Positions 5,336 through 50,461 of a stretch of DNA of 64,000 nucleotides are shown here, piece after piece. Under the pieces are notes generated by a model that saw nothing but the letters and a program-made list of their open reading frames with translations, was not told where the DNA came from and searched no databases. Positions within the stretch are counted from its first letter, which is position 1; every line of letters starts with the position of its first letter. Position numbers and translations under genes: made by a program. Source of the stretch: a virus (Duplodnaviria > Caudoviricetes); the IMG/VR virus record IMGVR_UViG_3300031949_000028, positions 1,009-65,008 of that record; one strand, written 5' to 3'.

Positions 5336-5537
5336 TTCCTTCTCCTAGATGCCCTGCGAGCGGCTCTTGGGGCCGGGCCAGCCCATCACGAGAGATACGC
5401 AGTTCGTGGCTAGTAGCGAGGCCCGTGCACGCCTTATGCACGCTGAGCGGCTGGCAAGCCTCTGTCCCACGCTCCGTACCTCTTGGCCTTCAATCCGCGT
5501 TGTCATGCGCGTCATTCGCTTGCTCGCTGAACGGTGT

Positions 5538-5837
5538 TCATTTCGGCGCTCCCACGACGCCTACAGTGATCTCTACCGGCTCTTGCCGTCCGTCGTCGTG
5601 AACCATCGTCGCTTGGATCGGCTTCATTGGAAGCCCATCAACGATGTTGAGCACGTTCTGCGCCGTTACCCTAATCTCCCACGAGACCTCGCGAGCGGTG
5701 AGCGCGGTGCAGAACTTACGTATATGGTCTAGCTTGAGCAGAATGGCTTTGATTTCGCGAGGATCGGCCATGATCTCGACATCGTTGCCTTCATCGATCG
5801 CGGCATCGCACAGATCCATCAACGGTACTTTGCTCAT
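5538..5837 (-). CDS. hypothetical protein
   Basis: ORF in the coupled leftward operon. Confidence 0.55.
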   Translation of the reverse strand: MSKVPLMDLCDAAIDEGNDVEIMADPREIKAILLKLDHIRKFCTALTAREVSWEIRVTAQNVLNIVDGLPMKPIQATMVHDDGRQEPVEITVGVVGAPK

Positions 5838-6392
5838 TCACTGCCTCCAGTAGACCCGCGCGGCATCCCGTCGAGCCGTCGAAATTGCCTAGTAAAGCGC
5901 ACGATCGTGCGATCGTCGCTGGTCTCCGTGCTCGACTCTATCGGCCCGAACTCAAGTAGAGGTCGGTCGTCGAACCATAGAGTCGTCCACGGGCTGCCGG
6001 CGACACTCACGAGCCGGGAGGGGGCGCATCGAGCAGTTGTCAAAGACGCAGCCGTGCTCCGTGAACTCGTGAAGCGGCCAGGAGCACCAATCGCATCTGG
6101 CGAGCCATGTCTTATTGCGCTCGCGGATATTGTTGACTAGATTCATCAGCAAATTCATAGCTCGTTCCTCCGAGACCCTTTCCGGTCTCGCACGCAATCG
6201 CTACAGTAGTGTTTGCTCTTGATAGTGCGCCACCCGTCCGCGCGCATGTCCTCGAACAAACGCGACTTCGCACCGCTCGCGGAAGAGAAACCGCGCACTT
6301 CAAGGCCAGCCGCTTCGCCGTTTACGCATCCTGGCGTGTCGCAGAAGGCGAAGCACTCGAAAACAATACTCACTGGCCCTCCGAACACAAAC

Positions 6393-41898: not shown

Positions 41899-42266
41899 CG
41901 ATCAGAGTGATGACTGCCGGTTCTGTGAGCGCGAACTATCACGTTCACGTTCGCCGCAGCGATACCCCTGGTAACACGTCGGTGTCGGCTGGTTACGCCA
42001 ACGAGCGCACACTGTGTATTCCGGTGATGGTTCAAGATACCCGTATCACGGTGCTTGGCACGTTCGGATCAGGTTCAGCCTCCACCGTAGTAGCTCTAGA
42101 CATCGGTCCCAACGGCTCGGCGTACATCAACCTGTTCAGTATCTCAGCTCCGTTCACGACGACGATCCCGGTGCAAGTGGATCACGTCCTGAGGTTTAGA
42201 CATTCCTACACCTCCGCGGCAGTAGCAGGAGCGTTAGGCGCATCGGTCGATGCCTGGGTCGGCTAG
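41895..42266 (+). CDS. small beta-rich hypothetical protein
   Basis: coupled ORF before terL. Confidence 0.6.
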   Translation: MTIRVMTAGSVSANYHVHVRRSDTPGNTSVSAGYANERTLCIPVMVQDTRITVLGTFGSGSASTVVALDIGPNGSAYINLFSISAPFTTTIPVQVDHVLRFRHSYTSAAVAGALGASVDAWVG

Positions 42267-44967
42267 CGCGATCAGGCTGCCCTACGTCCCGCAGCCGCGC
42301 CAAAAGGTACTACACCAGGCTGTCGCTCGAGAGATTCTTTACGGCGGACAAGCCGGAGGCGGTAAGCTAGGAGTAAGCTACTGTTTTGATTGGATTTTTC
42401 AGAAGTATCCAAACATTCAACCGCTGGAAGCTCTTGCTAAGCTGTCTGAGGTTCCAGAAGAGATCAGGGCTAAAGATTCTAAAGTTCTAGGATGGGACGG
42501 TCGCTGGCTCAGTATCTCCGAAGTCACTCCCGGAACTCGGATCATGAATCCGGACGGGCAATTTCAAGAGGTCTTGCAGGTTCATTACAACGGCACCTTA
42601 CCGTGCTCTCGGATGCATTTTGAGGACGGTTCCTCAGTCGAATGTGGAAACGAGCATCTTTGGGCCTTCTGGGAGGCGCGGTGCAATTCGCGAAAAAAGT
42701 CCAGCAATGGTGAGAACCCGGTCCATCCTGGATTAGACCCGCGAACTTGGAATCAAAATTACATCACGAGAGCCAGAGTTAGGCCGACATCCTGGCTCGC
42801 TAGCGCCCTGTCGAAGAATCGAAGATTTCTTATCCCTATCGGCAACCGGCTTCAATTTACGGGGTTGACTCGTAGCAAGCCAGATCGTGCATACCTTTAT
42901 GGACTACTGATTGGCGATGGTTGTATCGCTACTCCAGGTACACATGGAGATATTTTTCTGGGTACAGCAGACCCAGAAATCCGAGACTATGCTTTGGGTC
43001 TTTCAGAACTTAAGCCGGTTTGCTCGGTTAGGCCCAAAGACGGATTCAATAGCATCAAGTTTAGTGACAAACGATCGTGGCTGTATGGATGGGCGGCTAA
43101 TTCTGGGCTACTAGGTAAATACTCATGGGAGAAGTCTTTCCCGCTGGGCTATCTAGCGGCCAGCGTTGAATTTCGCATTGCTCTCGCCCAAGGATTGTTC
43201 GACTCTGACGGAACGGCCGGAGACGAGAAGCGCGAGGTCTCGTATACCTCTACGAGCGAAACGTTAGCCAGGCAAGTTGCTGATCTTGTCCGCACACTCG
43301 GCTATATGGCGAAGGTTAGCTCCAGGAAGCCCCTATGCACAAATTCTCCTGGTGGACCGAAACGATGTCGTGAGGCATGGACTGTATTTGTACAAGGAAA
43401 TCATCTAGAGGATTTGTTCAGGCTCGAGCGCAAGCGAGAACGTGCCGTTGTCCTTGGAGAGTTCAACGGTGGAGTTTCGTGGCCTGGAAAACGTATTGAT
43501 CGTATTGAACCAATCGGAGACCACTACGGGATTTGCATAACTGTTAGCAACCCGAATGGGCTGTACGTTACGGATGGCTACAACACCACGCACAACAGTT
43601 TTGGGTTGCGATGGGACGCAATCGACTTCTGTTTGCATCTTCCGGGGTTCTTTGCAGGCATTTTTCGCAGAACTAACCCGGAGCTCGAAGAGAATCACAT
43701 CAGCTTTATTCGAGAAGAGTTAGCGGCTCTGTCTCAGGCGTTCAAGACGCACATCGGTAAGTACAACGAGACTCGCAAGCGCGTCGAGTTCGTGAACGGG
43801 TCGCACATTCGTTTCAAGCATTTGGAGCTTGAGAAAGACGCGCACGACATTCAGGGCTGGGAGCTGCATGGGGCCTACCCCGATGAAGCGGCTCTTATGG
43901 AGCCGGGGCTGCTCGCGTATATCCGTTCGCGCATTCGCTTGGGCAGGATGCGCAATTTGTGGGAGTCGATGGCACTACAAGACCCGGCGATGCTTCCCTA
44001 CATTGCGAGAGTTCCGAGATTCGTGTTGGGCAGTAACCCTGGAGGCCCGTCGCATCACTGGCTGAAAGAGAACTTCATCGATCCAGCGCCTCCGGAGACG
44101 ATGTTCGAGATCACCACTGGAAGTGGTCGCAAGCGCACGCGGATCTTCATCCCGGCGTCGATGCGGGATAACCAATACCTCGATGAGAGTTACGAGGATC
44201 AGTTTGACGATCTCCCGGAGTGGCAGAGAAAGCAGCTCAGGGACGGGGATTGGAACACGGTTCCCGGAGCATTCTTCGATTGTTGGTCGCCGCAAAACGT
44301 CATTCGTCCGTTCGCGGTGCCGGACTACTGGACTCGCATGTGGTCCTGCGACTGGGGCTTTAGACAGCCGTTTTGGATCGGAGAATGGGTTGTCTCTGAC
44401 GGCAACCCCGTCAAGAACATGGCTGGTGAGTGGGTCACGTTTCCAGAGGAATGCATGATCCTCGTTCGCGAATGGTACGGACGGGAGAAGGGCAACAAAG
44501 GGATTCGGATGCCGGCGTACGAAGTAGGTCGTGCGCTTCGCGATTGGGCGAAGGCAGATATCAAAGTCGCAGACCCTTCGATGTGGCGATCAGACTCAGG
44601 GCCCTCTCCTGCAGAACGCATGGCACAAGCCGGTATCTATTGGACGCAGGCCGATAACGAGCGTGTTCCTGGCTGGCAGGAAATGTACGCACGCATCAAG
44701 GACGGAATGTTGTTGTCGTTCGATACCTGCAGTCACTTTTTGAGGATCATCCCGACGTTGACGCACGATGAGAAGAATCCCGAGGACGTGCTCAAGAAAG
44801 GCGAGGATCATCCGGGCGATGGCACACGCTACGCCTGCATGGGCCGTCCGTACAAAAAAGATCGTCCGAAAAAGAAGCGTTCATGGCAAGAGGAAGCGGT
44901 GAGAGTTCCGACGTTCAACGAGATCATGAATAGACGAACGCCCGCTCGTGGGCCGGAAATTATTTAG
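42250..44967 (+). CDS. terL: terminase large subunit containing an intein
   Basis: ILYGGQAGGGK/S Walker A, YPDEAA Walker B, GSNPGG motif, DWG RNase-H domain, EDHPGDGTRY. Confidence 0.95.
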   Translation: MPGSASAIRLPYVPQPRQKVLHQAVAREILYGGQAGGGKLGVSYCFDWIFQKYPNIQPLEALAKLSEVPEEIRAKDSKVLGWDGRWLSISEVTPGTRIMNPDGQFQEVLQVHYNGTLPCSRMHFEDGSSVECGNEHLWAFWEARCNSRKKSSNGENPVHPGLDPRTWNQNYITRARVRPTSWLASALSKNRRFLIPIGNRLQFTGLTRSKPDRAYLYGLLIGDGCIATPGTHGDIFLGTADPEIRDYALGLSELKPVCSVRPKDGFNSIKFSDKRSWLYGWAANSGLLGKYSWEKSFPLGYLAASVEFRIALAQGLFDSDGTAGDEKREVSYTSTSETLARQVADLVRTLGYMAKVSSRKPLCTNSPGGPKRCREAWTVFVQGNHLEDLFRLERKRERAVVLGEFNGGVSWPGKRIDRIEPIGDHYGICITVSNPNGLYVTDGYNTTHNSFGLRWDAIDFCLHLPGFFAGIFRRTNPELEENHISFIREELAALSQAFKTHIGKYNETRKRVEFVNGSHIRFKHLELEKDAHDIQGWELHGAYPDEAALMEPGLLAYIRSRIRLGRMRNLWESMALQDPAMLPYIARVPRFVLGSNPGGPSHHWLKENFIDPAPPETMFEITTGSGRKRTRIFIPASMRDNQYLDESYEDQFDDLPEWQRKQLRDGDWNTVPGAFFDCWSPQNVIRPFAVPDYWTRMWSCDWGFRQPFWIGEWVVSDGNPVKNMAGEWVTFPEECMILVREWYGREKGNKGIRMPAYEVGRALRDWAKADIKVADPSMWRSDSGPSPAERMAQAGIYWTQADNERVPGWQEMYARIKDGMLLSFDTCSHFLRIIPTLTHDEKNPEDVLKKGEDHPGDGTRYACMGRPYKKDRPKKKRSWQEEAVRVPTFNEIMNRRTPARGPEII
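42367..43596 (+). mobile_element. intein with LAGLIDADG homing endonuclease (410 aa, class-3-like)
   Basis: lies between Walker A Lys and Ser; ends TTHN/S; LAGLIDADG motifs YLYGLLIGDGC and QGLFDSDG; block B HLW, block F CITV. Confidence 0.9.
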
Positions 44968-44977
44968 GGTTCATGTT

Positions 44978-45208
44978 ATGGATCACAAAATGATGGGCGA
45001 GATTCTCCGAAGAAAGCCTCACATGGAGAACGAAGAATTAAGAGTCGGAGATAGGGTATCGGTTAAGGAAGGATCGGATCATGACTCGATGACTAAAGGG
45101 AAAAGCGGAGTTATTGAGATTGTCAGTACTAACGCATTGGGGATTAAATTCGATGGAATGAAAGAAGTTCACAAGTGGTATGTGGCCGATGAGCTGACTA
45201 AAAAATAA
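44978..45208 (+). CDS. small SH3/KOW-like protein
   Basis: LRVGDRVSVK..GKSGVIEIV..LGIKFDG. Confidence 0.55.
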   Translation: MDHKMMGEILRRKPHMENEELRVGDRVSVKEGSDHDSMTKGKSGVIEIVSTNALGIKFDGMKEVHKWYVADELTKK

Positions 45209-47289
45209 TGGAAGTTAAAGAGTTCTGGCGTCAATACGAAGTTGCCGACAAAGAGCACAAGCGATGGGAGAAGCGTGCCGACAAGGTTCTGCAGCGCTAT
45301 CGGCTTGAGACCGAGGCAGGAGATCCCACGACTGAGCCCGCGTTCAACATTCTCTGGGCGAATACGGCGGTGTTGTTGCCGAGCTATTTCTCCCAGGTTC
45401 CGACTCCCGACATCACACGGCGCTACAAAGACGACGATCCGATCGGAGCGCAGGGCTCCAAGGTCATCGAGCGCTCTCTTGAGTTCGTGTTGGACGACGG
45501 GGATTTCTACGAGTTCGGCGAAGCGTCCGTTTTGGATTACCTGCTCCCCGGACGAACGGTATGCAAGGTCCGATACGTTCCGACCTACGCACGGGTTAGA
45601 CAAGCCGTTCCCGTGGAGGCTCGCGAGCAGTTGGGGCCGGATGGCGTACCTGTTGGGTTTCAATACTTCCACGACGACGAGGAGCTTGACCCCGCGGAGG
45701 TCAAGTTCAATGAAGGCGTTGCGTTCATCGAGGTCGAGGTCGAAGAGGTCGTCGATGAGCATGTCGATATCGATCGGTGGCCGTGGAAGAACTTTCGCCA
45801 CCAGAAAGTCAAGCGGTGGAAGGATTGCGGTTGGGTCGATTACATCTCGTATCTAGATAGCGATCAGCTCAAGCGCCTATTAGGTCGCAAGGCCAAGGGT
45901 GTTGAACTCACTGTAGACGGCACCGGGAACGAGGATGGCAAGGACGACGGATTCCAGGCAACTCATGCCGAGGTTCACGAGGTTTGGTTCGCGCGCGATC
46001 GCAAGGTCCGTGTCGCGGTCAAGGGGAATCTGAAGAACTGGCTCAAGGAGATCGCCGATCCTCTGAGGCTCGATAAGTTCTATCCGACGCCGCCTCCGTT
46101 GCTCGCGATCGACACGAACGATTCGTTGCAGCCTATTCCGCTCTTTACGTTCTACCAGCATCAGGCGAACGAGCTTGATCTGATTACCAAGCGGATCGCG
46201 AAGCTCATGCGGGCTTTGAAGCTCGCGGGTCTCTACGCTGGGTCTGAAAAGGACACGCTCAAGAAGCTGTTCGAGTCCGACGAAAACGAGATGATCGCGG
46301 TCGAGGACTGGAACGCGATCAAGTCTGCTGGTGGTATCAATGGCCTCGTAGACTGGTTGCCGATCGAGCAAGTCGGCAAGGTCCTCACGGCTCTGTTCCG
46401 AGAGCGTGAGCAGATCATCTCGCAAATCTTCGAGCTCACGGGCATCGCAGATATCGAACGCGGTTCGACCGATCCCAGGGAGACGAAGGGCTCACAGGTC
46501 ATCAAGGCGCAGTTCTCCAGCCGCCGCCAGCAGAATCCGAAGCAAGAAGTGGAGCGGTATTTCCGCGACGTGCTCAGGATTGCCGCGGAGGTCATGGCCG
46601 AGCACTTCTCGACCGACACGTTGCAGAGAATGACCGGGCTTCAAATTCCTCCGGAAGTCCGGCAGCTCTTGCAAGACGAGCTGCAGCGCCAGTACCGGAT
46701 CGACATCGAGACCGATTCGACGGTGGCTCCCGATCAAGAACGTGAGCAGGCGAATATGGCGAAGGCGCTGGAAGCCGTCACGAACTATGTAGCGACCCTA
46801 GCTCCGATGGTGCAGCAGGGCACGCTCGATCAGCGTGCGGCTATTCAGTTGCTCAAGGTGTACCTGCGCAAGTTCAAGTGGGGTCGTGAGATGGAAGAGA
46901 TGCTCGAGCAGATCGAGCGCGCCCCGCCCGAGGAAAGGCCCGACCCCGAAAAGCAGAGGATGGAATTCGAGGCGAAGCTCGAGCAGCAGAAGGTTCAATC
47001 TCAGCTACAGATTGAAGCTCAGAAAGCGCAGATGGATCTGCAAAAGCAGCAGTCCGAGATGCAGCTTCGGATGCAGGAGATGCAAGCGAACCTCAGAGAA
47101 ATCCAGATGCGCATGGAGCTCGATGCTCGCAAGTCGCAACAAGAAATGTCACAGGACGCGCAGCGCCATTCGCAGGAAATGATCCAGGACCAACAGGTCC
47201 ACGAACAAGAGCTGATTCAAGCGAGGCAGTTAGCCGATGCGAAAGCGTTACAGGTACGACGCGGAAACGAAAACCGTCCTTCCACTTGA
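45208..47289 (+). CDS. portal protein (P22-like, with C-terminal Gln-rich barrel)
   Basis: position after terL; FNILWANT..P; YRIDIETDST; long C-terminal coiled coil. Confidence 0.88.
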   Translation: MEVKEFWRQYEVADKEHKRWEKRADKVLQRYRLETEAGDPTTEPAFNILWANTAVLLPSYFSQVPTPDITRRYKDDDPIGAQGSKVIERSLEFVLDDGDFYEFGEASVLDYLLPGRTVCKVRYVPTYARVRQAVPVEAREQLGPDGVPVGFQYFHDDEELDPAEVKFNEGVAFIEVEVEEVVDEHVDIDRWPWKNFRHQKVKRWKDCGWVDYISYLDSDQLKRLLGRKAKGVELTVDGTGNEDGKDDGFQATHAEVHEVWFARDRKVRVAVKGNLKNWLKEIADPLRLDKFYPTPPPLLAIDTNDSLQPIPLFTFYQHQANELDLITKRIAKLMRALKLAGLYAGSEKDTLKKLFESDENEMIAVEDWNAIKSAGGINGLVDWLPIEQVGKVLTALFREREQIISQIFELTGIADIERGSTDPRETKGSQVIKAQFSSRRQQNPKQEVERYFRDVLRIAAEVMAEHFSTDTLQRMTGLQIPPEVRQLLQDELQRQYRIDIETDSTVAPDQEREQANMAKALEAVTNYVATLAPMVQQGTLDQRAAIQLLKVYLRKFKWGREMEEMLEQIERAPPEERPDPEKQRMEFEAKLEQQKVQSQLQIEAQKAQMDLQKQQSEMQLRMQEMQANLREIQMRMELDARKSQQEMSQDAQRHSQEMIQDQQVHEQELIQARQLADAKALQVRRGNENRPST

Positions 47290-47587
47290 GCGATGGCTCG
47301 CTAAGAACGGAGATCCATCGCGCGCCAAGCATCACGTCATCGGCGATATCGATCCCTACATGCCGGTGACGGGAGACATGCAGGGCAAGTGGATCACGTC
47401 GCGCAAACAGCATCGCGAGTTCTTGAAGCGTAACAATTTAGTCGAGGTCGGAAACGAGAAGGCGTACATGACCCGCCACGGCGGCATGTCGCCTGACAAT
47501 CCGAACCTCATCAGTGACGAGAAGCACGAGGAGCAGATATGCAGGAACCTGATGGAGAGCTTGGAGCAGTTGAAGAGTCGTCGGTAG
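47237..47587 (+). CDS. conserved phage protein between portal and scaffold
   Basis: DIDPY..V..G.WITSRKQHREFLKRNNLVEVGNE. Confidence 0.7.
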   Translation: MRKRYRYDAETKTVLPLERWLAKNGDPSRAKHHVIGDIDPYMPVTGDMQGKWITSRKQHREFLKRNNLVEVGNEKAYMTRHGGMSPDNPNLISDEKHEEQICRNLMESLEQLKSRR

Positions 47588-48627
47588 ATATCGACTGGCA
47601 GAAAGCTCTCCAAGAAAGTTTAGACGGCGACGGCGCCGCGAAGAAGGACGAGACTGCAGAGGTCAAAGCCGACGACGCAACCGAAGCCAAGAAAGAGACC
47701 CAACAGGGTCACGAGACCCCCATCGAGACCAAGGTCGAGGCCAAGGTCGAAACGGGGAACAAGTCGGGTGAAGAGTCCGCTAAGGATGCCCTACAGCCGC
47801 TTGCCAGTTGGTCGGAAGAGGTCAAGACGTATTTCCTCTCGCTGGATAAAACGGGCCAGCAGTTCCTTTTGGACAGGCACAAAGAGTTCGAGGGTGACTA
47901 CACGAAGAAAACCCAAGAAGTCGCGGATGTCCGAAAGCGATACGAACGGCTCGATGATGTGCTCAAGCCCTACGATGAAATCGCTCGCCGAACGGGTACT
48001 GATCTTGCACCGGCTGTAGCAACGGCGTTGCAGTATTACGTCGCCTTTCAGCGCGATCCCTTGTCGCTAATCAAGACACTCATCCAAGCGAACAAGCTCA
48101 CAGCCGAACAGCTAGGACTTGTGGAGGACACGACCGATCCGGCCCAAAGGGCGCTCACGGACCGTTTGGCTAACACCGAACGAACTCTCGCGAGCATGCA
48201 GCAGGGTGCATCCCAAGCCAATGTGACTCAGCTCGTCACTCGCGTGACCGAGTTCAAAGACGCGAAAGACGAGAAAGGCAATCCCAAGTACCCGTATTTC
48301 GATCGTGTACGAACGCTGATGGCTCCGATCGTCGATGCCGGCAAATCGCTAGAGGACTCCTACAAAGAGGCCGTCTGGGCGGTACCGGAATATCGACAGG
48401 AGATGGAGAAGTCGGCGCAAGTCGCTCGCGAAACCGCACACGCTGCGGCCGAGAAAGAACGAGAGAAGGAACGGTTAGCCAAAGCGGAAAAGGAACGACT
48501 CGAGAAATTGAAGAGTGCCAAAGCCGCCGAAACTCTACCGTCATCCGATACGGACAAAGGAAAGCAGAAAACCGAGTTCAAAGGATGGGCCAGCGCTTTG
48601 CAGGAAGAACTTTCATCAATGCAATAG
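47539..48627 (+). CDS. capsid scaffolding protein
   Basis: acidic, helical, directly upstream of the capsid gene. Confidence 0.75.
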   Translation: MQEPDGELGAVEESSVDIDWQKALQESLDGDGAAKKDETAEVKADDATEAKKETQQGHETPIETKVEAKVETGNKSGEESAKDALQPLASWSEEVKTYFLSLDKTGQQFLLDRHKEFEGDYTKKTQEVADVRKRYERLDDVLKPYDEIARRTGTDLAPAVATALQYYVAFQRDPLSLIKTLIQANKLTAEQLGLVEDTTDPAQRALTDRLANTERTLASMQQGASQANVTQLVTRVTEFKDAKDEKGNPKYPYFDRVRTLMAPIVDAGKSLEDSYKEAVWAVPEYRQEMEKSAQVARETAHAAAEKEREKERLAKAEKERLEKLKSAKAAETLPSSDTDKGKQKTEFKGWASALQEELSSMQ

Positions 48628-48638
48628 GAGCAAAGTAA

Positions 48639-50461
48639 ATGGCAAGTCCGAATCTTTCGGAGCTTGTTACAACGACTCTTCGCAAGCGTCAAGGGCAGTT
48701 GTCCGACAACGTTTCCAAGTCGAACGCATTGCTTTCGCGGGTCATGGCCCGCGGCAATCTCGATACGGTGACGGGTGGGCGGACGATAGTACGTGAACTC
48801 GAATACGCTGTGTGATTTCGGCCTCTAGCGGCGCGATCTGCTAGAGAATCAGCATAATTTGCTGGAAACCCCTTAGAGCTTCCAAGACCAAAGGGTGAAA
48901 CTGTGGAAGATTGGGCAATCAGCAGCCAAAGACATGTGTTTGACAGGTTAGCTTATACCATTGGTTTTTTTCTGGGTGATGGCTGTCTAACTTCATATCC
49001 GTTCAAGTCGTCGAGCAACGGAAGAACGTACTACAAGAACGATGTGGTATTTGTTTCTTCTGACTTGGAGTCTCTTGAAAAGGCTCATGAACAGATAGCA
49101 GACGTGTTCGGCAAGAGTTACGCGTTCGTAAGGCGCACTCTCAAATCCGGAACGCCGCACTGGAACTTCTGCGCTCACCGTAGGGACATCTTCGACTTCT
49201 TCGCAGTTAATACTGCGATGAGGAAGGAAATCCCTAAGTACTATTTTTCAGCAGAGGCTTCGGTACAGAAAGAGTTGATAGCGGGTCTGATGGACACGGA
49301 CGGGCATTGCACCAGAACAACGGGTGGCAGTGGACTTCCGCGTTGGCAGATCGGTTTTAGCAATGGCAATCTTGGTCTTGTGCAAGACGTGGCCTCCATT
49401 CTGCAGAAGCACAATGTTTCTGTTGGAGCGATCACCGAAGGCAGAAAGGCCGGGTATAAGTCAATGTGGATCATTCATCCAAATATCCGTCAGTACATCG
49501 ACAGAGGGTTTGGGTTTAGCGTACTGCGTAAGCAGCAACGCTTGAATGATTACGTCAGTCACGTGTCTGGCTCAGAGACTACAATGGCTGCACCCTTGAC
49601 ATAGGGTGAAGGTATAGTCCTCCCGTATCTGAAAATATACGGATTCAGGAAAATTCGACGTTTATGTACTATTCGGGCTATGAGAGCCTGAATATTTCGC
49701 CCTCAGACGTTTTTTCTGCCGCAGAGTACGATTGGAAGCAAGCAGCAGTTAACGTTTCGTGGTCTGGTCTCGAAGCTCGAATTCAAAACAGCGGTGACGC
49801 GGCGAGCATCAAGCTCGTTGCAGGCCGGATTAAGAATGCCGAGCGGACGATGCGCAACCAGATATCGATCGGCATCTACTCGGACGGGTCGGGAAGCGGC
49901 GGCAAGCAGATCACTGGGTTGCAGTCCCAGGTTGCTGATGCGCCCTCGACCGGAACTGTGGGCGGGATCAACCGTGCGAACTTCGCGTTCTTCCAGAATC
50001 AAACGGTCACGATCACGTCCACGGATAACACGTCCGAGCTCGCGGCGGACATGCGGACTCTCTGGTCTGCGTGCTCACGCGGGGTGGATAAGCCGGACCT
50101 TATCGTGGCGGGCGCTACTCTGTATGACCTCTTTTGGTCGGACATGCAGAGCATCCAACGGGTGACGCAAGCGGGCAGCGGGAGCAAGGGTTTTTCAGAA
50201 CTCGACTTTCGCGGCGTGCCGGTCGTGCTCGATGGAGGTCAGGCGACGGGATCGGCGATCGATTGGGGCGGCGGCATCTCGGCAACAAGACTTTATATGC
50301 TTAATACCGAATATATTTATTGGTCGGTACACAGCAAGACCAACATGGTCCCGGCTGAGGAGCGTATGTCTTTGAACCAAGACGCTACCGTAGTTCCGCT
50401 TCTGTGGGCAGGCAATCTCACGATGAGTAACGCCGGCCTTCAGGGCGTCATCCACACTTAA
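48639..50461 (+). CDS. major capsid protein, spliced (exons 48639-48809 and 49649-50461; 327 aa)
   Basis: joining gives MASPNLSELVTTTLRKR...GGRTIVRELEYA/ENSTFMYYSGYESLNISPSDVFSAAEYDWKQ, in frame. Confidence 0.88.
48810..49648 (+). mobile_element. group I self-splicing intron (839 nt)
   Basis: 5' exon ends in U; terminal omega-G; P (AATTTGCTGGAAA), Q (AATCAGCAG), R (TCAGAGACTACA), S (AAGGTATAGTCC); candidate IGS TTTCGGC at 48816-22. Confidence 0.9.
48903..49604 (+). CDS. intron-encoded LAGLIDADG homing endonuclease
   Basis: AYTIGFFLGDGC and LIAGLMDTDG motifs. Confidence 0.88.
   Translation: MEDWAISSQRHVFDRLAYTIGFFLGDGCLTSYPFKSSSNGRTYYKNDVVFVSSDLESLEKAHEQIADVFGKSYAFVRRTLKSGTPHWNFCAHRRDIFDFFAVNTAMRKEIPKYYFSAEASVQKELIAGLMDTDGHCTRTTGGSGLPRWQIGFSNGNLGLVQDVASILQKHNVSVGAITEGRKAGYKSMWIIHPNIRQYIDRGFGFSVLRKQQRLNDYVSHVSGSETTMAAPLT

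Follow-up and report, generated by a model that had tools for sequence, protein, structure and literature searches.

A predicted group I intron with a LAGLIDADG endonuclease gene reaching into its core in the major capsid gene of an uncultured phage

The single major capsid gene of an uncultured phage of about 65 kb, recovered from a metagenome, is interrupted by an insert, which raises the question whether the shell protein is made from a truncated ORF or from one gene that is spliced as RNA. CheckV rated the IMG/VR record (65,008 bases) as complete, and the viability of the phage was assumed from this completeness. The window, that is the whole stretch of 64,000 nucleotides analyzed here, comprises positions 1009-65008 of the record. 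The large terminase, the portal, a gene in the scaffold position, the capsid region with its insert and a 167-aa gene follow one another on the plus strand:

42250-44967, plus strand: large terminase
45208-47289, plus strand: portal (PHROG 12082, E 4e-142)
47539-48627, plus strand: scaffold-position gene, 362 aa
48639-48809, plus strand: major capsid protein exon 1, 57 codons, its last base (U 48809) being the 5' splice-site U (PHROG 9953 and collinearity with residues 1-57 of 327-aa homologues)
48810-49648, plus strand: predicted group I intron, 839 nt, ending in omega-G 49648 (frame restoration, Rfam half-matches, covariation in eight homologous introns)
49649-50461, plus strand: major capsid protein exon 2, 270 codons and stop (PHROG 9953; 81-92% identical to homologues)
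3' of the capsid region, plus strand: 167-aa gene

The ORF at 48639-48815 runs, after ELEYA, through one codon into a stop, which bears out the early stop reported in the initial annotation. Its first 57 residues matched positions 4-60 of PHROG 9953 (major head protein, E 2e-14), and the ORF from ATG 49664 to 50461 matched positions 68-326 (E 6e-71). The gap between the two matches is seven positions long and corresponds to the seven residues encoded by 49649-49669. The capsid pieces were not recognized in a Pfam search; PHROGs did match them. When the 839 nt from 48810 to 49648 were taken out and 48809 was joined to 49649, a protein of 327 aa was obtained. It aligned gap-free across the junction with 327-aa homologues (56-89% identity), and the junction fell within the invariant motif ELEYA|ENSTF. 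The proposal that this removal rejoins ELEYA and ENSTF in frame thus agrees with the collinearity to uninterrupted homologues. One relative, L152, encodes a capsid protein of 89% amino acid identity in an uninterrupted gene with the same gene order. From these comparisons we conclude that the true capsid product is a 327-aa protein from one gene, predicted to be spliced. The capsid family is SU10-like, and PF17236 was found in some of the homologues.

As judged from sequence, the insert is best explained overall as a group I intron of the self-splicing type with a LAGLIDADG ORF, and we hold this view with high confidence. Its predicted parts are as follows:

48807-10/48819-22, plus strand: P1, in which U 48809 pairs with G 48820 (MFE fold)
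48816-48822, plus strand: internal guide sequence (P1 in the MFE fold; layout common to L013, L014 and L016)
48816-19 with 49649-52, plus strand: P10, 4 bp possible with the first 4 nt of exon 2
48823-31/48838-46, plus strand: P2 hairpin, 9 bp with a C-GNRA-U loop (in homologues the stem sequence differs in each, pairing and loop type being kept)
48850-55/49584-90, plus strand: P3 (four core pairs canonical in 8/8 introns, two of them with compensatory changes)
48860-65/48919-24, plus strand: P4 (Rfam alignment, covariation, KIL1 identity)
48870-72/48913-15, plus strand: P5, adjoining an invariant, receptor-like internal loop
48879-84/48904-09, plus strand: P5a (Rfam alignment, covariation, KIL1 identity)
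48891-95, plus strand: Shine-Dalgarno-like AAGGG in the L5 loop
48903 or 48936 to 49604, plus strand: LAGLIDADG homing-endonuclease ORF (Pfam LAGLIDADG_3, homologues, structure model)
48925-27/49569-71 and 48930-38/49560-68, plus strand: P6, 3 bp, a 2-nt bulge and 9 bp (covariation and fold)
49572-49590, plus strand: J6/7, P7 5' strand (R element) and P3 3' strand, all inside the ORF (Rfam alignment, covariation)
49577-81/49615-19 (S element side), plus strand: P7 (Rfam, covariation, fold)
49591-96/49603-08, plus strand: P8 hairpin, six pairs, four of them with more than one pair type (fold)
49609-49642, plus strand: J8/7, P7 3' strand (S) and P9 hairpin (Rfam, covariation, fold)
49623-28/49637-42, plus strand: P9, with a GAAA loop
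49648, plus strand: omega-G

An Rfam search of the whole window gave no match at the gathering thresholds and none at E <= 0.05. When the search was restricted to the region, two sub-threshold matches to RF00028 (gathering score 50) were obtained. The one of 17.0 bits aligned 48860-48949 as P4-P5-P4'-P6 (model positions 60-139), and the one of 14.9 bits covered 49502-49641, its 3' part being R, P3', P8, S and P9. The two halves lie in canonical order with the ORF between them, and they probably remain below threshold because the model cannot span the 621-nt ORF loop in P6. The search with group I models that was suggested in the initial annotation therefore returned two ordered half-matches and none reaching the gathering score. 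The core elements are also in canonical order, with P at 48860-65, Q at 48919-24, R at 49572-83 and S at 49609-20. The P, Q, R and S elements, the U at the 5' splice site and the omega-G named earlier were all found, and the two half-matches to the Rfam model assign P, Q, R and S to the same elements. A G ends the intron, as it does at the frame-restoring junction of 11/11 related introns.

Covariation was analyzed in an alignment of eight homologous introns from related phage capsid genes (839-878 nt, aligned throughout). In 48 pairs of P2, P3, P4, P5, P5a, P6, P7 and P8, 95.3% of the cells were canonical, and compensatory double changes were present in 26 of the 48. None of 1000 column shuffles reached any of three covariation measures, and pairing fell to 31-42% when the 3' partners were slid by 1-3 columns. 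The distal part of P6 had at least three pair types in five of its nine pairs. An unconstrained MFE fold of the ORF-deleted intron, in which the P6 loop was replaced by a tetraloop, recovered P1, P2, P5, P5a, P6, P7, P8 and P9 (z = -3.3). It had a local alternative in place of P3 and P4, which is expected because P3 and P7 form a pseudoknot. The proposed boundaries and core are thus supported by collinearity, the Rfam half-matches, covariation in eight introns and the ORF-deleted fold. The layout is compact, with GNRA loops on P2 and P9 and without P7.1/P7.2, and is reminiscent of small bacterial introns.

Similarity to deposited phages was detected by blastn only with the KIL phages, over 80 nt. 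The P4-P5-P5a-P4'-P6 part of the intron was 77.5% identical over this length to a stretch in the portal gene of Pseudomonas phage vB_PsyM_KIL1 (KIL1, NC_030934). The stretch sits in an element of 316 nt that scored 59.9 bits against RF00028, and the portal CDS is annotated as two joined pieces. The two introns have this domain in common, and both interrupt late structural genes. However, the KIL1 element is without an ORF, is only about 316 nt long and lies in another host gene, and blastn found no similarity outside P4-P6.

A guide able to form both P1 and P10 had been claimed earlier, and one was located at 48816-22, with P1 and P10 placed as listed above. The P1 of the window copy is short, with three exon pairs and one intron pair compared with 4-6 in relatives. 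An alternative guide at 48830-33 would give a 4-bp P1 as in the relatives that share the splice site of the window, but it lies in the top of the conserved P2, needs a pseudoknot with P2 and allows a P10 of only 1 bp; we regard it as possible but doubtful. The guide at 48816-22 was preferred because the intron's closest relatives, L013, L014 and L016, share its layout directly 5' of P2 and because the MFE fold yields it.

The ORF encodes 233 aa from GTG 48903 or 222 aa from GTG 48936, and its stop codon (TAG 49602-04) is located in the P8 loop. It matched Pfam LAGLIDADG_3 (E 2.5e-7). Motif 1 (GDG) and motif 2 (DTDG), with both acidic residues, fell in invariant or nearly invariant columns among 29 homologues. 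In the AlphaFold model (pLDDT 92.5), two repeats of a helix and four strands were seen, giving the pseudo-dimeric alpha-beta-beta-alpha-beta-beta-alpha fold. The top Foldseek matches were the endonuclease domain of PI-PfuI (TMq 0.71, E 2e-10) and I-DmoI (E 6e-9), and the bI3 LAGLIDADG maturase was also among the structural matches. The product is accordingly predicted to be a monomeric two-motif LAGLIDADG endonuclease. A search for a sigma-70-like promoter of the endonuclease found none.

P6 encloses 621 nt that form the body of the ORF, and the P6 3' strand (49560-49571) is itself inside the frame. Codons 209-222, counted from GTG 48936, and the stop occupy 49560-49604. This 45-nt overlap spans P6', J6/7, the P7 5' strand (R), P3', the P8 5' strand and part of L8, and is certain. 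The initial annotation was thus right that the endonuclease ORF overlaps the catalytic core. It had also placed the start of the ORF before Q and its end after R. The second part stands, the frame running through R to a stop in the P8 loop, whereas the first requires GTG 48903 as the start codon. GTG 48903 lies in the P5a 3' strand, 7 nt past the AAGGG, and is equivalent to an ATG with a strong Shine-Dalgarno site in several homologues (e.g., L016). GTG 48936 lies in the P6 5' strand, after Q; the public gene call P0121 (222 aa) begins there, and most homologues have their ATG at the corresponding site, with an in-frame stop upstream in at least one of them (L015). At the P6 site, homologues that start at the upstream ATG carry I, V, L or W, and so does the window; we therefore lean towards GTG 48903 as the somewhat more probable start. 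Only with this start is there a 5' overlap with P5a/P4'. Of the 218 ribozyme nucleotides, 81 would then also be coding, compared with 48 if translation started at 48936. Either GTG is base-paired in the folded ribozyme, so that translation and folding should compete on one RNA molecule. Such competition is known for I-TevI in the T4 td intron.

The residues encoded in the 3' overlap had low AlphaFold confidence. The C-terminal tail conserved in the family (G-S-E-T, or G-E-D-I-V in longer versions) corresponds to the R and S elements in translation, and the whole tail is what results from translating R, P3', P8 and S. Some relatives keep the frame open through S and P9 and end it within about 10 nt of the 3' splice site. 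The tail therefore looks like tolerated read-through of the ribozyme, not like a requirement at the protein level.

Homologues of the endonuclease were found in 28 clusters with 39-61% identity. Contig DNA was available for ten clusters. In eight of these, the gene lay at ELEYAENSTF of a related capsid gene, flanked by a short exon 1 and a truncated exon 2; in L139, it lay at about residue 85 of the capsid gene. The recovered locus L145 and L066, a more distant relative, lie in a gene outside this capsid family. Scanning of viral contigs with a generic R...S pattern gave mostly unrelated group I introns. By tblastn, the relatives L057 and L066 and six more distant endonuclease matches were detected among these loci. 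From metagenome and viral scans with an endonuclease profile, only some eight further usable loci were obtained.

The closest capsid homologues (81-89% identity) are mostly encoded by uninterrupted genes of 327 aa; the element is therefore patchy, as expected of a homing intron. The exon DNA beside the intron was about 75% identical to the intronless relative L152 throughout, no closer than the rest of the gene. Accordingly, there is no trace of recent co-conversion from the L152 lineage. The closest interrupted capsid relatives, L001 and L002, contain a different, ORF-less intron located 13 nt downstream (46 bits in Rfam), and in several relatives the capsid gene contains two or three introns. 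The conserved ELEYAENSTF motif is a hot spot for introns in this capsid family.

The splice sites of the related introns differed. The Ala|Glu boundary used in the window was also found in L015, L137, L138, L140, L143 and L147. In L014 and L016 the splice site falls within the Tyr codon, 5 nt upstream, and in L013 within the Leu codon, 10 nt upstream; L139 splices close to residue 85. The guide of each relative forms a P1 of 4-6 bp with its own exon and, at the shifted sites, a P10 of 4-7 bp; at the shared site it tracks synonymous and Ala-to-Ser changes in the exon. The endonuclease and 5' architecture of the window resemble those of the shifted-site group (L013, L014 and L016) despite the Ala|Glu site. 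One tentative explanation is that a single intron and LAGLIDADG lineage has shifted its splice point in 5-nt steps (-10, -5, 0) within a homing target of about 30 bp. If so, the DNA target would be fixed while the RNA insertion point drifts, with only the guide being retuned and the core and nuclease staying homologous. The window copy, which is clade-A-like in its 5' architecture and nuclease but is at site 0 and has an unusually short P1, would then be a recent product of such a shift. The 5-nt shifts may reflect either sliding of one element or repeated insertion.

Taken together, these features suggest the following course of events. The whole capsid gene would be transcribed into one pre-mRNA, whose insert would fold as a compact group I ribozyme (P1-P2, P3-P8-P7, P4-P5-P5a-P6 and P9). 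Two guanosine-dependent transesterifications would then excise the intron and join 48809 to 49649, so that the 327-aa capsid protein could be made. The P6 loop would house the body of the gene for the monomeric two-motif LAGLIDADG endonuclease. This enzyme most likely cuts the intronless ELEYAENSTF-coding DNA of co-infecting relatives, where repair would copy the intron in (homing). The 3' end of the ORF, and probably also its start codon and ribosome-binding site, would lie within paired segments of the ribozyme, and endonuclease translation and ribozyme folding should be mutually exclusive on one RNA molecule. Actual splicing, the activity and target of the endonuclease and the interplay between translation and splicing are here deduced from the DNA.

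Three other readings of the locus were weighed. An endonuclease gene might simply have split the capsid gene, the shell being built without splicing from the 265-aa product of ATG 49664, with or without a 58-aa N-terminal peptide. The public gene calls list the pieces as separate genes, and an AGGA is present about 13 nt ahead of this ATG. However, the Met at 49664 is not conserved, being Q, K or L in homologues, so the family does not use a truncated capsid protein. Conservation also covers the N-terminal 62 residues throughout the family, and the insert has a covarying group I core with a guide that fits exactly these junctions; we consider this reading highly improbable. An intein in the capsid gene was rejected, as exon 1 meets a stop and the endonuclease frame is closed at both ends.

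The intron might also be real but splice inefficiently by itself: with a weak P1, it would need either a host chaperone or the LAGLIDADG protein that it encodes, in the role of a maturase. The three exon base pairs of P1 (4-6 in relatives) and the structural match to the bI3 maturase would be in line with this, and maturase-like activity is on record for a bacterial LAGLIDADG protein (PMC3984707). Yet every core helix is intact, as are the GNRA loops that close P2 and P9 and the receptor-like internal loop of P5, and the protein keeps both catalytic acidic residues of the nuclease and bears no maturase-specific mark, so that dependence on a helper seems quite unlikely. Alternatively, the intron may splice while the endonuclease it carries is defunct and the element has lost its mobility. 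The two possible starts are GTG codons, the start and the Shine-Dalgarno-like site are buried in helices, no promoter-like site was found and there is no sign of recent co-conversion in comparison with the intronless relative. Against these points, the ORF is intact over 222-233 codons, both LAGLIDADG motifs are among the residues invariant in the family, the structure model is confident, and the presence of the element among close relatives is patchy, as for an active homing element. Loss of mobility is in our view unlikely, and we retain a spliced intron with a homing endonuclease as the preferred reading.

The description of capsid-gene introns as uncommon in the initial annotation has to be qualified, as both such introns and the overlap of ORF and core have been published before. 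In mycobacteriophage LittleE, a capsid-gene group I intron of 819 bp was experimentally shown to splice and contains a bottom-strand LAGLIDADG gene (Pope et al., 2013, PMC3706429); a capsid-gene intron of lactococcal phage Tuc2009 is cited in the same paper. LittleE resembles the present case in the size of the intron (about 0.8 kb), the location in the major capsid gene of a tailed phage, the U and G ends, the LAGLIDADG gene and the absence from close relatives. However, its endonuclease gene is antisense, while the gene described here is sense-oriented and part of it is also ribozyme sequence, and the capsid family and insertion site of LittleE are unrelated to those found here. An endonuclease ORF reaching into the intron core is a recognized layout (Hausner, Hafez and Edgell, 2014, PMC3984707, Fig. 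2b). In that review, GIY-YIG, HNH, PD-(D/E)xK and EDxHD are given as the enzyme families commonest in phage introns and LAGLIDADG is not listed among them, so that a sense-strand LAGLIDADG gene represents a less usual case. The T4 td intron with I-TevI is similar in that the P6 loop of this phage group I intron houses the ORF and the translation start lies in paired RNA. The difference is that the LAGLIDADG ORF described here reads through P6', J6/7, P7, P3' and half of P8, whereas the ORFs of T4 are for the most part looped out of the core; I-TevI also belongs to the GIY-YIG enzymes.

The current understanding of group I introns is not changed by these results. In public data, the capsid genes of this and many related phages are wrongly annotated as three pieces, namely a short ORF for the N-terminus, an endonuclease and a truncated capsid ORF. 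The intron family forms a well-sampled natural series in which one may study the threading of a coding frame through a ribozyme core, the reconciliation of translation with ribozyme folding and the possible shifting of splice sites inside a single homing target.

Making the shell of this phage would depend on RNA splicing. The initial annotation went further and took both packaging and capsid production to be splicing-dependent, which is plausible, with only half of it verified. The terminase ORF (905 aa) contains a LAGLIDADG domain at residues 214-360, and terminase similarity begins only at about residue 450. This layout, with the LAGLIDADG domain ahead of the terminase similarity, is compatible with a putative intein.

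Homologous introns carrying a homologous LAGLIDADG gene were identified in the capsid genes of three related-phage loci, where their splice sites were shifted relative to that of the window's intron (48810-49648):

L013:2398-3240, site 10 nt upstream of the window's
L014:2395-3243, site 5 nt upstream of the window's
L016:2409-3262, site 5 nt upstream of the window's

These three splice sites and that of the window are all located in one capsid motif, and the guide sequences of the three relatives form strong P1 and P10 pairings, each with its own junction. Another relative, in L139, was located close to capsid residue 85. Within the window's intron, a second candidate guide was detected:

window 48830-48833, top of P2, could base-pair with the four 3'-terminal bases of exon 1

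This sequence is identical to the guide of those relatives inserted at the same site as the window's intron. Relative to the guide at 48819-22, it may represent a relic or an alternative.

The interrupted capsid genes most similar to the window's (88-92% amino acid identity), those of L001 and L002, contained a different intron:

L002:223-415 and L001:1-87, ORF-less group I intron, distinct from the window's (46 bits, Rfam)

It is inserted 13 nt further downstream than the window's intron, therefore two unrelated introns target the same 10-codon motif. Two or three insertions per capsid gene were found in the relatives L014, L015, L137, L138 and L147, including the following regions:

L014:3244-4400, second group I intron (59.4 bits), adjoining an antisense HNH gene
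L137:480-1230, GIY-YIG gene, flanked in the capsid alignment by residues 25 and 16
L015:2900-3660, further gap(s) in the capsid alignment
L138:2270-3020, further gap(s) in the capsid alignment
L147:850-1270, further gap(s) in the capsid alignment

The window's intron and endonuclease family was also represented in host genes not belonging to the window's capsid family:

L066, around 5421-6160, minus strand
L145:1300-2159

Both elements shared about 40% protein identity with the window's, and their P2, P4-P6 and R elements were the same.

Translated in frame, the ribozyme R and S elements encode the C-terminal tail conserved across the endonuclease family (G-S-E-T ... G-E-D-I-V), as read from window 49560-49604 and columns about 240-262 of the endonuclease homologue alignment A3. 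The position of the endonuclease stop codon along the ribozyme differed among relatives, being located in L8 in the window and, for L013 and L015, at most about 10 nt short of the 3' splice site.

The large-terminase ORF of the window (42250-44967) encodes a 905-aa product. A LAGLIDADG domain occupies residues 214-360 and similarity to terminases begins only at about residue 450, a layout consistent with an intein. Its nuclease showed only remote similarity to the intron's endonuclease (22% identity, E 0.005).

In the head-gene block of Pseudomonas phage KIL1 (L010; NC_030934, 20431-25510), three Rfam group I matches fell within 3 kb:

match 1, in the joined terminase CDS, truncated where the L010 locus begins
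match 2, L010:765-987, directly before an HNH gene
match 3, L010:2446-2761, in the joined portal CDS

Among deposited sequences, the window's P4-P6 domain is most closely related to this portal intron.
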